This document shows positions 8,191 to 56,689 of a DNA stretch of 64,000 nucleotides, in pieces. The position numbers were made by a program, and so were the translations under genes. Positions within the stretch are counted from its first letter, which is position 1. Each line of letters starts with the position of its first letter. The notes beneath the pieces are model-generated. The model made no database searches, had not been told where the DNA came from, and was given only the letters and a program-made list of their open reading frames with translations. The stretch comes from Eledone cirrhosa (lineage: Eukaryota), in assembly GCA_964016885.1 (NCBI GenBank), contig OZ024743.1:356872001-356936000 (forward strand), given 5' to 3'.

Positions 8191-11100
8191 ACAATAATTA
8201 AATATATAAATAGATAAATAAATGACATTGTTAAATAATAAATAAATCAACTAATACCTTAACACTTCACACAAAGTAAAATTTTTCGTTTTAATCATCT
8301 TCTAACCCAGAAAAGAGAGAGCGAGAGAAACAAAAAAGGAATAAAATATATTTTTCTTCCTAATAATCGTCTCTTTCTCCCTGTTTTCATATATATATAC
8401 AGTTCTTAGTCTTGTAGAAGCCTTTTCCATATAAGCCTGTCTTCACTCTACTTATGTATTGAGTACCTTATTTACTGTGCTTACTCCCGGCCCTACTCGG
8501 GGTCAACATATATTTCTGAAAATCTTCCATCATAATTTTATGTAGGAACATTTAGATTATACTCCAAACACCAGCTTAATAATGAATATATTACTAAATC
8601 CCTCCCAACCTTTTGGTTATTTTAAAAATTATTTTTTAATATGTATTGTTTTATGTTAAGAATTTCAATGTAACATATCTTTCTATCTGTCTGTCTGTCT
8701 GTGTATGTGTGTGTGTTGTGTGTGTGTTTTTACATACGAATATAAATAATAATTCAAATCATATATTTATAAAGTTATCAGGCTCGAAAAAAAATGCAGC
8801 TGAGAGAGAGAGGGGCGGTGATGGCGGTGATAGAGGTGGGAAGTGTAGATAGTCTGTAGATAAGTATAGGAGATGGGTGTTAACACTAGTGGCTCCATCT
8901 GCAGGATAACACAATGCAACTCATTAGCAGCAGAATGCAGCTTCTAACTCTTCCTCACTTCTAATCTTTCATGGGTGGAAGAGTTGGCAGTGTGAAGTAA
9001 GTGTATGTATGTATGTGTGTATGTATGTGTGTATGTATGTATGTGTGTATGTATGTATGGGTGTATGTATGTATGTATGTATGTATGTGTGTGTGTGTGT
9101 GTATGTGTGTATGTATGTATGTATATATGTATGTATGTATGTATGTATGTATGTGTATGTATGTATGCATATGTGTATGTATGTATGTATGTGTGTCAAA
9201 TGAGGGTCAGAGTTGATGTTGAACACTAAACAGAGTATTTAATAGGCTTTCTCCATGGGTCAGTTACACACACACACATATGTATGTATATTTATATAGA
9301 TACACACATATACAACGATTGACACACATTGTTCTGCATATACACACACATATTCTCAAGTTCAAGCTACTCTGCGCATGGTTTGTCACACACACATTCA
9401 CACACTGACTGAATGAGCTGAGATGTGTTGCAAACGCGCACGCACGCACACACACACACACACACACACACATATATATATATATGGAGAGAGAGACATC
9501 CGTCTATATATATATATATATATATATATATATATATATATATATATATATATATATATATATATATATATATATATAATAATATATATTAGGGTAAATA
9601 TTGATGCAATTCAATTCAAGCACTCAACGTACTTTTTCCACATAGGAGTGACGGAGTAAATATCGAATAAGGAAATATATATCACAGCCCCGCCGTGGTT
9701 GACTTTGCCTTTCATCCTTACGGAGTCGATAAAATAAAGCACCAGTAATGCACTGGATAATTGCTGGCCTTGTGCCTAAAGTAGAAACAATTATTATTAA
9801 AGGATTTGAACATCTGAAACTACTTCGCTTTTCCTTATTCTATAATAATATATATATATATATATATATATATATATATATATATATATATGCATGTGTG
9901 TGTGTGTATGTATGTATATATATATATATATATATATATACTGTATATATATTACTTGTTTCAGTCTCTGGTCATGCTGGGGCACTGCTTTCAAGGATTT
10001 TAGTGCGTGGAATCTGTTAAGATGTATCTATTTGTCAAATAAAGGTTTGATATTTCTTATGCTTCTATCTTTCTCATACCTCGCAAACCATATACCTTGG
10101 AATACCAACCACACATAAGCTCTGAGTATCTAAATTTTCATAAAAATATTGTGGTCATTTAATCTGCGTGAAATAGAAGCCAAATCACAGTCAAATAATT
10201 ACTGTGGCGAAATAATTACGGACATGTGGCTGAACAACAACAAAAACAACACATTTGGACATTTCAAGTTATTATACTGAAAGCTTCTTTCATCATAGAT
10301 GGTTTATCTCTAGTGTCATCATTCTCATACAATAATTAGAGAGTTGTTGGTTGACCAGATAGAAATAGTAACCAAACCACTGTCATAACACACCTTATTG
10401 TCTTGAGAAAGGACATATTGGATAGTCAGAGGGGTACAATTCTTGAAATCACCTCCACTTTCCTCCCTAACCCCCCCCCCCGATGGATGGGCATGGCTTG
10501 AACATATTCAGTCGACACATTTTGTTGCAGTGATGCTGATGATGATGATGAGGACGGTAGAGGTTATGGTGTTAGTGGTGATGATGTTAAGGGTGATGGT
10601 AGGGATGATGATGGCAGTGATGATGTTGGAAATGATGATGATGATGGTGGTGGTTATGGTGGTAGGAATCATAGTAAGGATGATGATTATGGCAGTGACG
10701 ATGATAGTAGTAATGATGATGATGATGGTAGACAATATGGTGGTAGTGATGGTGTTAATGGTGCTAGAGATGATGATGATGGTTGCTACCATTGAACCCT
10801 TCTTTAAACAATAAGTGAGATATTATAAGTGGCCTTAGTAATCCTTTGTAATTTCCTGTTACTCACTCAAAGGAATGTTTTTTAAAAATCTAGATACATA
10901 AAGACAAATACACAGACATACACAGTGTGTGTGTGTGTACCCGTCTTCTACGCACACATACACATCTACACATGCCTATACATATCCATACACATGCTTT
11001 TATATGTATGTATGTACACATACCAGACCTGTTAACTCGCCCTGTCCGATGGCGAGATTTCCCACCCACTTTGGAGTGAATGAGAGATGTCTTCTCTTGG

Positions 11101-11342
11101 GAAAATGGATATAGCTTTAATTATGTAAAATAAAGTACCAGTTATATGCTGGGATAATTGCTGGCCTTGTGCCAAAAGTAGAAACAATTATATAAAATCT
11201 CCCCATTTTGCCTCATTTCTCCTATATCATATACATATATATATATATATGATATATATATATATATATATATATATATGATATATATATATATATGATA
11301 TATATATATATATGATATATATATATATATATATATGATATA

Positions 11343-11544
11343 TAACGAAGGAAATGTGGTAAGGAACCAGGTGGACCATAACGCACCAAAGTACTCAATA
11401 CTTGAGGTAGTAGAGTGGATAATAGGAACCAGTAACACCGCGACAGCTGAGCTCAAGCCGTTTCGACGGCTAATTCTGGACTCAGTCCAGAATTAGCCGT
11501 CGAAACGGCTTGAGCTCAGCTGTCGGGGTCTTACTGGTTCCTAT
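11343..11544. mobile_element. Palindromic PLE-terminal element (arms 11422-11482 / 11484-11544) with one-sided tail
   Basis: Near-perfect 61-bp arms centred on 11483, each holding GAAA-stem III-GTC; tail 11343-11421 carries the conserved hairpin; TA arrays on both sides. Confidence 0.85.
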
Positions 11545-53317: not shown

Positions 53318-55084
53318 ATGTATGTATGTATGTATGTATGTATGTATGTATGTATGTATGTATGTATGTATGTATGTATGTATGTATGTATGTATGTATG
53401 TATGTATAATCTTGGATTACATGCTGAGAGAATATTTGTATACCTGTGGACATGGCTTGAAAGTGAATGACTCTTAGCCTTTGTCAGAGCATTCTTCTAG
53501 GAGAAGGGAACTCAGGAAACTGGGTTAACTCCGACATAAAACCTGCGGCTCAGTATTTAACGATGATGTTGATCTTTTCTTCTTTTCGGGTTATAGCTAC
53601 TGTCGCTCAGAGAGTGGGATTGGCTCAGTGCACAGTCTTTCCTCACTTTAACAAAAATCTTCACGCACAGGCATTGCACGATAGAATTAATTGATAATTA
53701 TTAATAATTGTTTCTACTTTTGGCACAAGGCCACCAATTATTCCAGTGTATGACTGGTACTTTATTTTATCGACCCCGTAAGAATGAAAGGCAAAGTTAA
53801 CCTCGGAGATAGCGCATGTGTAAACTGATATATAGCATGGTAAGCTATATGTAGATCCATTTTTACATTATGTGTATATGTGTATGCTTGCGTAAAGCTG
53901 TGTGTATATTCACGCATATCATACAAATGGTTTGTTTATGTACACTCCTCTATGTATGAGGAGGAGTAAATGAATGATGGGGTGGGTGGTAATGTTTATA
54001 CTAAATACATCCTTTCGAGAATAGCCTAAGATTAAGATGACCCTGTCCCCTCTCCACATACACATATGCACTAATGCATATATATATATATATGTATATA
54101 TATATATATATATATATATATATATATATATATATATATATATATATGATGACGACTGCAAACTCTGCGAAGAGTATTGCAATCGCTTGTCAGATTATAG
54201 AGTTTGGTGCACTTATAGGCTACGGCCAGCCACACGAACCTGTAACATATCCTGAACAAGAAATGTCTGTGCTTTGAAGGTTTTTAAGTGGGGAAAGGCC
54301 TTGCACTCGACACCAATCCCACTCTCTGAGCATCGAAAATACTAGCCGAAAAGGAGAACTGGTCAACATCATCGGATGCTTCCGAAGCCGCAGGTTTTCT
54401 TTTTTTTTTTTTCAGAGGTTTCCCTCTCCTAGAAAGGTGTTGTGACAACTACTGGGGGCCTTTCACTCCCAGGTAAAAAAAATGTATTCATATATATATA
54501 TATATATATATATATATGAATACATTGTATATATATATATATATATATAATATATATATATAATATATATATATGCATAACAAGGTATACACTAATGCAT
54601 GTGCAAACGTATGGACATTACACACAAACACAGAAACTTTGAAACACATACTCGCACGCTCACATATATATATATATTACACCCGTACATTGTGCCGACG
54701 AGGGACCCTTTATATGGTCACTTGACCTGCTAGAAATAGTAGCTAAATTTCCATTAAATCACACTCTGCTCTCTTAAGAAAAGACAGATCGCGTTGGATA
54801 GTATATCCTAGATATAAATCTAAGAAGATGGGGTAGTCGTGGCTGGAATGTATTTGCTGACTTGGGGCTAAACAACAACACATACATGTGATACATAGAC
54901 ACATACATTTACATACGTAGACACACACACACACACACACACAGATGCATGTAGTATATACATGTGGTGCACACACATGCATGCATCACCACCAAACAAC
55001 CCACTACACACATACACCAAACACCACACCATCACTACATCACACACTGCACACACACACAATCCACTACATCACACACACACA

Positions 55085-55590
55085 TCACCACATGTACACA
55101 CACATCAACACATGTACACACACATCACCACATGTACACACACATCACCACACATGTACACACGCATCACCACATGTACACCCATATCACCACATATACA
55201 CACACATCACCACATGTACACACACATCACCACATGTACGCACACACCAACACATGTACACACACATCACCACACATGTACACACATCACCACATGTACA
55301 CACACACCAACACATGTACACACACATCACCACACATGTACACACACATCACCACATGTACACACACATCACCACATGTACGCACACACCAACACATGTA
55401 CACACACATCACCACACATGTACACACATCACCACATGTACACACACACCAACACATGTACACACACATCACCACACATGTACACACACATCACCACATG
55501 TACACACACATCACCACATGTACGCACACACCAACACATGTACACACACATCACCACACATGTACACACATCACCACATGTACACACACT
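55085..55590. repeat. About 19-21-bp minisatellite (cacatcaccacatgtacaca)
   Basis: Direct reading. Confidence 0.9.
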
Positions 55591-56689
55591 CACCGCCACC
55601 ATCAATAGCCACAATATTTTCCTTCCCAATTTGCCGGTTTTAATGGATTCTAATTTTAGTTAAATGGAATATTGTGGAAGATAAAACTTCATTAAATGGT
55701 TACAGACAGTGAATGGTGGTGGTGGTGGTGGTAGTGGTGTGGTGGTGTGGTGAGAGTGGTGGTGGTGGTGGTGGTGGTGATGTGGTGAGAGTGGTGGTGG
55801 TGGTGGTGGTGGTGGTTGACGTCGTCGTTCATCGCTGTTGTTGCTGTTGGGGGTGGTTGTGGTAATGATAGTATTGAGAGCTATGGTAGTGGTCATAGTG
55901 ATAGAGTTGATGGCATTGACGGTGATGCTGGTGGTGGTGGTGGAGGTGGTTATGGTCAAGTGATGTTACTGTTGTTTAACCCTAGGTCAGCTTCATGACC
56001 ATGTCGTCTTTTACGACAGTAATTACATTGTTAATTGTGTCATCCTTTTATAAAGATAGCAGAGTGTGTGATTTGAGATAGATTTGGCTGCTACTTCTAG
56101 CATGTTTAATCATCACATAGAGGCTCCTTCATTGGTTGGTGGGTTGTTATGAAATATGTTTCTTGAGGGTGGAATTCATATGAGGAGTAATGTATGGAAT
56201 TAGGGGTGTACAGTACATGAAGTCATATTTATTTATGTGATTTAGTTTTCTTTCGACTAAGCTGGAACTTCGAAGTTACTCACTTTTCTATTTAGAAAAT
56301 AAATGTTTACACTCCAGCCACCAGTTTTGAACACATATTCTATATACTCTCTGTCTCTCTCTCTCTCTCGCTCACTGTATATATATATATGTATATATAT
56401 ATGTATATATATATATGTATATATATATATATATATATATATATATATATATATATATATATATATATATATATATATATATATATATAGGTATATATAT
56501 ATATATATATATAGGTATATATATATATATATATATATAGAGATTTTGAGTTTATGTTGGTTGTATACCAACACCTCAGTATGCAGGCTGGAGCACTCGA
56601 CGAAGTGCGCAGGTTGGTTTGGTTACTCCGGAGTAGTGTAAAATAAAGTTAAATAAAAGTCAAATGATTAAAATTTAGCTTCGTTTATT

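Follow-up and report, generated by a model that had tools for sequence, protein, structure and literature searches.

A doubled RNA hairpin in the leader of Hydra-clade Penelope-like elements that apparently marks both ends of their insertions

The 64,000-nt stretch of Eledone cirrhosa contig OZ024743.1 analysed here (hereafter, the window) contains multiple copies of a short bulged hairpin located near the (TA)n junctions of dissimilar insertions. An earlier note, made from the letters of the window, took this hairpin for the cis-acting RNA signal recognised by the protein of Penelope-like elements (PLEs), which combines a reverse transcriptase (RT) with a GIY-YIG endonuclease. We find that the carriers of the hairpin are PLEs of the Hydra clade, that their complete leaders contain two such hairpins in a row, and that insertions end just upstream of one or the other, with one end of each kind in almost every inverted insertion. 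The doublet is a real, conserved and apparently undescribed cis-RNA feature of these elements; neither the pairing of the hairpins nor the end-fixing role of the second one figured in the earlier note. Very probably, the hairpins set the start sites of cDNA synthesis at the RNA level.

The hairpin in the window and in the genome

All nine clear hairpins of the earlier note are present, each at the position and on the strand reported for it (Table 1), and the pair above the bulge is indeed T-A in six of the nine and C-G in three. The strict pattern matches the window 9 times, compared with a mean of 0.085 (maximum 1) in 200 dinucleotide shuffles of the window stripped of microsatellites. The distance from the motif to (TA)n, proposed to be 30-60 nt, is 31-62 nt for eight copies; for the copy at 8444, the element ends about 41 nt downstream, at a short ATATAT. 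The restriction of the motif to the longer arm of palindromic elements holds as well. A whole hammerhead core upstream on the same strand is kept in only three of the nine copies (49990, 50667 and 56593); the other six are 5'-truncated.

The weaker copies of the earlier note are a different matter. At 15253, a copy of family M (families are lettered throughout) is truncated inside hairpin 1; the 3' half is present, but the supposed 5' strand sits in the inverted arm, and the stretch was rejected as a full motif. The stretch at 26618 was rejected because seven homologous stretches lack the GAGY 3' strand, and the candidate at 2720 has no homologue among the loci compared. Conversely, the window holds a tenth full copy that is absent from the earlier note, at 58042-58069 on the plus strand; its basal pair is G-C. 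The general form of the motif is RCTC-Y-[helix]-R-UH-GAGY-RC, where the bulge begins with U and continues with U, C or A, and the 3' RC, which stays unpaired, is conserved; on sequence grounds, the bulge and the unpaired RC are as would be expected of a surface read by a protein.

In the genome at large (3.0 Gb), the T-A pattern has 77,242 matches versus 410 for the reversed-pattern control, and the C-G pattern has 34,464 versus 529; a pattern with a G-C basal pair contributes a further 26,400 (1,390 in the control), and a C..A mismatch pattern just 3,377, many of those among the matches listed being satellite, with the gap ranges slightly unequal across the four patterns. The total exceeds 130,000 hairpins. 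Long satellites with 63-bp and 58-bp units that derive from the hairpin-1 region of family A (see below), located at G000:C1 near 81.256 Mb (L248) and 14.235 Mb, inflate some of these counts. Of the 41 motifs in 400 kb of flanking DNA taken without selection, 33 have (TA)n 25-80 nt further on, compared with 11% for random positions.

Rfam holds no family that corresponds to the hairpin: none of the best 150 of 197 matches to the window reached the gathering score, nor did any of the 26 matches to 11 doublet-bearing loci, among which there was no relevant family. We found no description of the hairpin or the doublet in the full-text literature, the coverage of which excludes subscription journals and Repbase.

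The carriers are Hydra-clade elements

The earlier note linked the hairpin to a Neptune-like element through the copy at 8444, a link that has to be abandoned. Among the 29 other copies of the Neptune-like family, 25 end at the equivalent of window positions 8396-8401 and 4 stop earlier; none extends into 8400-8760, and none has the motif in register. The 8444 hairpin therefore belongs to a short element of its own, inserted where that element ends in TA. The motif is absent from the coding strand in all 30 GIY-YIG loci of the Neptune/Poseidon type, and from the approximately 1.5 kb around either end of the open reading frame (ORF) in all 11 elements of this type. Neptune-type families (L127, L143, L109 and L117) also have two end points, each followed by a different short signal, namely, a GTGT/ACAC stem with CTC after the first and a word resembling CCACAC after the second; other clades may thus have doubled signals of their own.

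The hairpin is carried by Hydra-clade PLEs. When the commonest hairpin family, A, was traced upstream, fragments of RT and endonuclease were encountered, followed by many intact 784-codon frames. Family A has a single ORF, 717 aa from Met, with an RT and, at the C-terminus, a GIY-YIG endonuclease, and forms tandem arrays with a unit of about 3.54 kb (3,542-3,543 bp). The family is very young, with dozens of near-identical intact 784-codon frames, many of them tandem or inverted (L179-L188). The protein contains SDKT at positions 116-119 (D 98%, K 100% and T 94% across 118 relatives), a conserved RW (R37 100%, W38 98%) with R as the third residue (RWR) where the Hydra-clade motif is RWK, a CxCX5C linker, no CCHH and, in the alignment of the families from the same genome, CxxC and CxH near the end. 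We assign family A to the Hydra clade because DKT, CxCX5C and the lack of CCHH match the definition in PMC8557442; like that clade, it inserts into (TA)n. The endonuclease was assigned by its motifs, two family-A frames having no match in Pfam, and the predicted structure of the protein (pLDDT, the predicted local distance difference test score, of 93) has TERT as its best fold match. At more than 3 kb, family A departs from the published tendency of Hydra elements to be shorter than 3 kb, which is not a strict criterion.

According to the accessible text of PMC8557442, Hydra-clade elements combine a C-terminal GIY-YIG, DKT, the CxCX5C linker, no CCHH and a hammerhead with (TA)n targets, tandem and inverted copies, and a tail on one end. 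The carriers described here share these features and differ in having a tail of 45-100 nt instead of 30-40 nt; in that text, the hammerhead is the sole RNA signal, and no hairpin is mentioned. The idea of a cis-RNA signal, probably read by the protein of the element, stands as far as conservation, covariation and a fixed distance to the ends are concerned, and fails with respect to the clade, which is Hydra and not Neptune.

The element at 13713, labelled Naiad-like in the earlier note, is of the Hydra type, too. It has the CxCX5C linker, and its endonuclease, which matches residues 545-707 of family A at 36%, is followed by a stop, a 3' untranslated region (UTR) and a hammerhead-like core, an arrangement at odds with the N-terminal endonuclease of Naiad. 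Its TA end at 14723 has no hairpin and, judging from the layout of the sequence, would be a candidate E1-type end as defined below.

The hairpin is doubled

Read-through copies reveal the order hammerhead, hairpin 1, spacer, hairpin 2, ATG. A tight pattern for the doublet has 1,752 matches in the genome versus 0 in the control, and a Hydra ORF lies downstream of the doublet in A, B, D, E, F, G, H, I, M and N, which amount to at least nine autonomous families, E and H being close relatives. These doublet families account for the window copies at 11391, 44962, 49990, 50968 and 56593, probably for that at 51569, and for the truncated one at 15253. Two non-coding families, J (window copy 9620; a 1,322-bp unit) and K, keep the doublet as well, with no similarity to the Hydra or Neptune protein in any of 8 loci. 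The two non-coding, hammerhead-bearing families that retain both hairpins (L364 and L366/L367/L376), with units of about 1.3 kb and about 1.7 kb, are larger than typical retrozymes. The hammerheads of the family A leader (L186) and of window 8157-8182 have a U3-A8 core in place of C3-G8, a variant that is on record in the accessible text of PMC4209133.

Two kinds of insertion ends

The ends of the insertions fall into two classes. E1 ends lie 2-8 nt 5' of hairpin 1 (last shared base mostly at -2 to -7), and E2 ends mostly 3 nt 5' of hairpin 2 (mode -3; 103 of 156). The 323 TA junctions that could be matched in 1.46 Mb of loci, many of them selected by motif, include 125 E1 and 156 E2 ends (281 together), and most of the remaining 42 are at an internal TA run; in the 400 kb of unselected flank, the two classes comprise 52 of 63 junctions. 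Since E2 ends lie 5' of hairpin 2, this hairpin is essentially never copied into insertion ends. An AU-rich stretch of RNA lies 5' of each hairpin, and 72 of the 79 such stretches include TA.

The combination of the two classes is highly regular. Of 59 inverted insertions, 57 have one E1 and one E2 end, two are E2/E2 and none is E1/E1, compared with about 49% mixed pairs expected under random pairing (p 1.6e-15 for the excess of E1/E2). The same holds for 16 of 17 inverted insertions in loci not selected by motif and for 10 of 10 in the 400-kb unselected flank. Either arm may be the longer one, and the E1 arm is far longer in L173, L016 and L243.

Conservation in other animals and covariation

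Protein relatives of these elements amount to 2,049 of 8,000 scored candidates at E<=1e-30. From metagenomes and metagenome-assembled genomes (MAGs), 77 and 14 loci, respectively, were retrieved by protein alone and not by motif; L358 and L359 were dropped as weak matches, 36 of the 89 others were set aside for want of 150 nt of upstream sequence or of the N-terminus, and the remaining 53 were reduced to 42 lineages. A loose hairpin finder that ignores pairing detects at least one hairpin in 39 of the 42 and two in 33 (ORF-internal control, 1 of 42). The spacer between the hairpins is 34-57 nt in 32 of the 33 doublets, a hammerhead core lies 48-77 nt ahead of hairpin 1 in 23 of 25 lineages, and the distance from the end of hairpin 2 to the aligned ORF start is 14-51 nt. 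Where both ends are on the contig, these elements meet TA 0-12 nt ahead of hairpin 1 and 3-4 nt ahead of hairpin 2. Among the published consensi in PMC8557442 File S7, inspected by eye, Hydra-1_Ajap has both hairpins, one T-A and one C-G, so that the doublet is also seen in a published sea-cucumber consensus, and hairpin 1 sits at the 3' end of Hydra-2_Ajap and of Hydra-2_Amil; 11 other exact matches to the 3' block in that supplement fall in Naiad and Chlamys consensi and have no evident partner strand. Scans of viral contigs with one protein and with the alignment, 12 stretches each, brought up no relative. The Hydra-clade PLEs on contigs in bacterial genome bins (L346-L357) are most likely animal host DNA. 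By comparison of sequences, then, the hairpin is conserved across marine animals.

Covariation was counted by script, since MAFFT put gaps in the wrong places of the variable helix when it aligned 61 motifs, and is significant, as the earlier note had presumed. The pair above the bulge of hairpin 1 is T-A in 20 of 35 cases, C-G in 11, T-G in 2, C-A in none and something else in 2 (Fisher p 4e-7). The switches between T-A and C-G are scattered on the RT tree, where well-supported branches require a minimum of 7 changes; this tree is of the ingroup only and retains doubtful labels for L290, L333 and the long-branch L250. For hairpin 2, the same pair is C-G in 33 and T-G in 4 of 37, which brings the wobble pairs to 6 T-G and 0 C-A among 72 motifs. 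The first three pairs of the upper helix form in 36, 33 and 27 of 43 motifs (shuffled means 21, 18 and 19). The basal pair in 21 families of the Eledone genome is A-T in 14, G-C in 4 and never A-C, and elsewhere two-sided changes of the basal stem replace T-A with A-T in two lineages and G-C with T-A in one.

Features of the window

The coordinates of the hairpins and the associated features are collected in Table 1. A 2-kb (TA)n array with regular TCA interruptions adjoins the family-A insertion (window 11549-13583), and an inverted-repeat element at 51056-51412 is located between two hairpin-bearing insertions. By their motifs, the stretches at 43473-44400 (-), 32708-33136 (-) and 27258-27605 (-) resemble fragments that we take to be of long interspersed nuclear element (LINE)-type RT and mariner-type transposase.

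Table 1. Hairpins and associated features of the window
Positions	Strand	Feature	Remark
7044..8399	+	Neptune-like GIY-YIG fragment and 3' UTR	no motif of its own
8444..8466	+	hairpin 1 (T-A)	short separate element 8400-8507, at TA end of Neptune-like element
9620..9658	-	hairpin 1 (C-G), family J	non-coding 1,322-bp unit with hammerhead and both hairpins
11335-11548		inverted insertion around 11391 hairpin	one E2 and one E1 end
11391..11417	-	hairpin 1 (T-A), family A	young, intact Hydra-clade PLE
13601..13643	+	family M copy	5'-truncated inside hairpin 1
13713..14294	+	Hydra-type GIY-YIG 3' fragment	
15255..15280	-	3' half of hairpin 1, family M	truncated
44962..44988	+	hairpin 1 (T-A), family A subfamily	long arm of inverted insertion
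49990..50012	-	hairpin 1 (C-G), family I	autonomous Hydra-clade
50074..50115	-	hammerhead core upstream of 49990 hairpin	pattern match, not Rfam
50517..50600	+	hammerhead core, long stem II, upstream of 50667 hairpin	pattern match
50667..50703	+	hairpin 1 (T-A)	family without found hairpin-2 read-through
50968..50994	+	hairpin 1 (T-A), family E	autonomous Hydra-clade
51569..51596	+	hairpin 1 (T-A)	related to family H (76% over 123 nt)
56539-57015		inverted insertion around 56593 hairpin	one E2 and one E1 end
56593..56635	-	hairpin 1 (C-G), family D	autonomous
56702..56739	-	hammerhead core upstream of 56593 hairpin	mirror copy 56924-56961 (+)
58042..58069	+	additional hairpin 1	G-C basal pair

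A possible mechanism and its alternatives

How could two hairpins determine two ends that are almost always found together? We consider it likely that two copies of the RT-endonuclease dock on hairpins 1 and 2, each of which is set just 3' of a start site; the idea that the hairpins bind the protein derives from the geometry of the ends and from conservation. Under this scenario, hairpins 1 and 2 of one tandem or read-through RNA would each dock one protein copy, and the two docked copies would nick opposite strands of the (TA)n target. Each nicked 3' end would then pair with UA(U) 3-8 nt upstream of its hairpin and prime a cDNA. The cDNA primed at E2 would copy hairpin 1, which would become the tail, and the cDNA primed at E1 would be devoid of hairpin 1. 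Extension of both cDNAs and a template switch that joins them would yield an inverted repeat in which just one arm carries the tail. For the non-coding families with both hairpins, mobilisation would be in trans. Both priming events probably occur on one RNA because separate RNAs would yield about one half of same-type pairs.

The most serious alternative places the action of the motif at the DNA level: the endonuclease would recognise it in the cDNA or the new duplex, and trim or resolve the product at E1 and E2 after a single priming event followed by fold-back. Such a route would fit the near-symmetric fold-backs at many inversion junctions and the partly palindromic 3' block, and it has precedents in the literature, given that the accessible text of PMC8557442 ascribes the tail to endonuclease-mediated resolution and that of PMC11167929 cites a need of the tail for endonuclease recognition in the Penelope of D. 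virilis. We nevertheless regard it as unlikely. Hairpin 2 fixes E2 and yet is almost absent from the inserted ends, so that every insertion would require its synthesis and subsequent removal; the six T-G and no C-A pairs fit a motif that acts on a single sense strand; and the long E1 arms of L173, L016 and L243 are impossible to obtain by fold-back from one E2-primed cDNA.

Alternatively, a host nuclease or the PLE protein itself might cut the RNA just upstream of each hairpin, with RT starting at the resulting 3' ends, a proposition that would fit the short, fixed distance from the hairpin base to the end point. It founders, in all likelihood, on the pairing of the ends: independent RNAs should pair at random and produce about one half of same-type insertions, whereas 2 of 59 are seen; besides, the Poseidon element PAc starts internally on unprocessed RNA, according to the accessible part of PMC11167929. 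Finally, it is very doubtful that the doublet mainly serves translational or packaging control, with the end points following from AU-rich neighbours alone, because, notwithstanding the location of hairpin 2 at 14-51 nt ahead of the aligned ORF start and the TA in 72 of 79 upstream stretches, the non-coding families J and K retain both hairpins, and other internal TA runs as well as many later TA sites are not used as paired ends.

Several observations weigh against the RNA-level interpretation that we favour or against the generality of the doublet. A genome search found no hairpin-2 read-through for the 8444 and 50667 families, its 8 matches being five family-A variants and three chance or chimeric hits. 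The loose finder also responds to 9 of 42 reverse-complement controls, and a few of its calls are spurious; of the six published Hydra consensi, three show the motif, one (Hydra-1_Crog) shows it in part, and in two (Hydra-1_Amil and Hydra-1_Obim) none is visible by eye. The basal stem is nearly invariant outside the Eledone genome, most of the covariation coming from one pair and the variable helix. Folding of the free RNA, from which 12 doubtful motif calls were dropped beforehand, is moderate, with a mean pairing probability of 0.64 (above 0.5 in 48 of 67) compared with 0.49 for the antisense; several references from the same genome are below 0.3, and the minimum-energy fold of family A joins the 5' strand of hairpin 1 to the 3' strand of hairpin 2. 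For PAc, the priming site is reported to be non-homologous to the cut DNA, and the accessible text of PMC11167929 describes no similar hairpin doublet and no rule for the pairing of E1 and E2.

Relation to known systems and implications

During twin priming of L1, both target strands prime on one RNA, which gives an inversion; the position of the second priming site varies, and there is no overlap between the two cDNAs. By contrast, both sites are fixed in the Hydra-clade PLEs, and the arms overlap as an inverted repeat. The 3' UTR of R2 and elements of telomerase RNA are bound by RT and position target-primed reverse transcription beside the template; the Hydra hairpin differs from these in sequence and fold, lies 3' of the start and is doubled.

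The closest parallel is PAc of Anolis, for which the accessible text of PMC11167929 reports that both strands are cut and extended, that RT starts at two internal sites bounding the tail, that RNA 3' of the start is required (+172 versus +111-118), and that a dimer is predicted. Two docked protein copies on one RNA, as proposed here, would agree with these features of PAc. The difference is that initiation on PAc was placed within one AC-rich stem loop inside the ORF, without the binding motif being pinned down in that text. Families J and K, in turn, resemble the retrozymes that have no long terminal repeats (non-LTR retrozymes), tandem non-coding hammerhead units proposed to use PLE proteins (bioRxiv 10.64898/2026.07.22.740005), the accessible text of which leaves unnamed a cis-signal common to both parties. 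The hairpin doublet is likely to be the signal that non-coding hammerhead elements borrow.

These findings bear on the question of how PLEs, the closest relatives of the telomerase RT, recognise their RNA and acquire a one-sided tail and inverted arms. The hairpin offers a candidate binding site of 20-45 nt, compared with 172 nt in the sole in vitro study, along with a rule, one hairpin for each end and an E1 combined with an E2 end in an inverted insertion; an intact element of recent origin is available as well. It also provides a simple means to classify and delimit more than 130,000 repeats in the Eledone genome. In a wider reading, and here we would lean neither way, Hydra-clade PLEs might integrate by programmed twin priming, with a pair of proteins on the two hairpins of one RNA priming from both target strands at two fixed sites; twin priming might be the general origin of the tail and the inverted repeats of PLEs, and the leader of about 120 nt might be a portable signal by which this telomerase-related RT could insert any upstream RNA into (TA)n.

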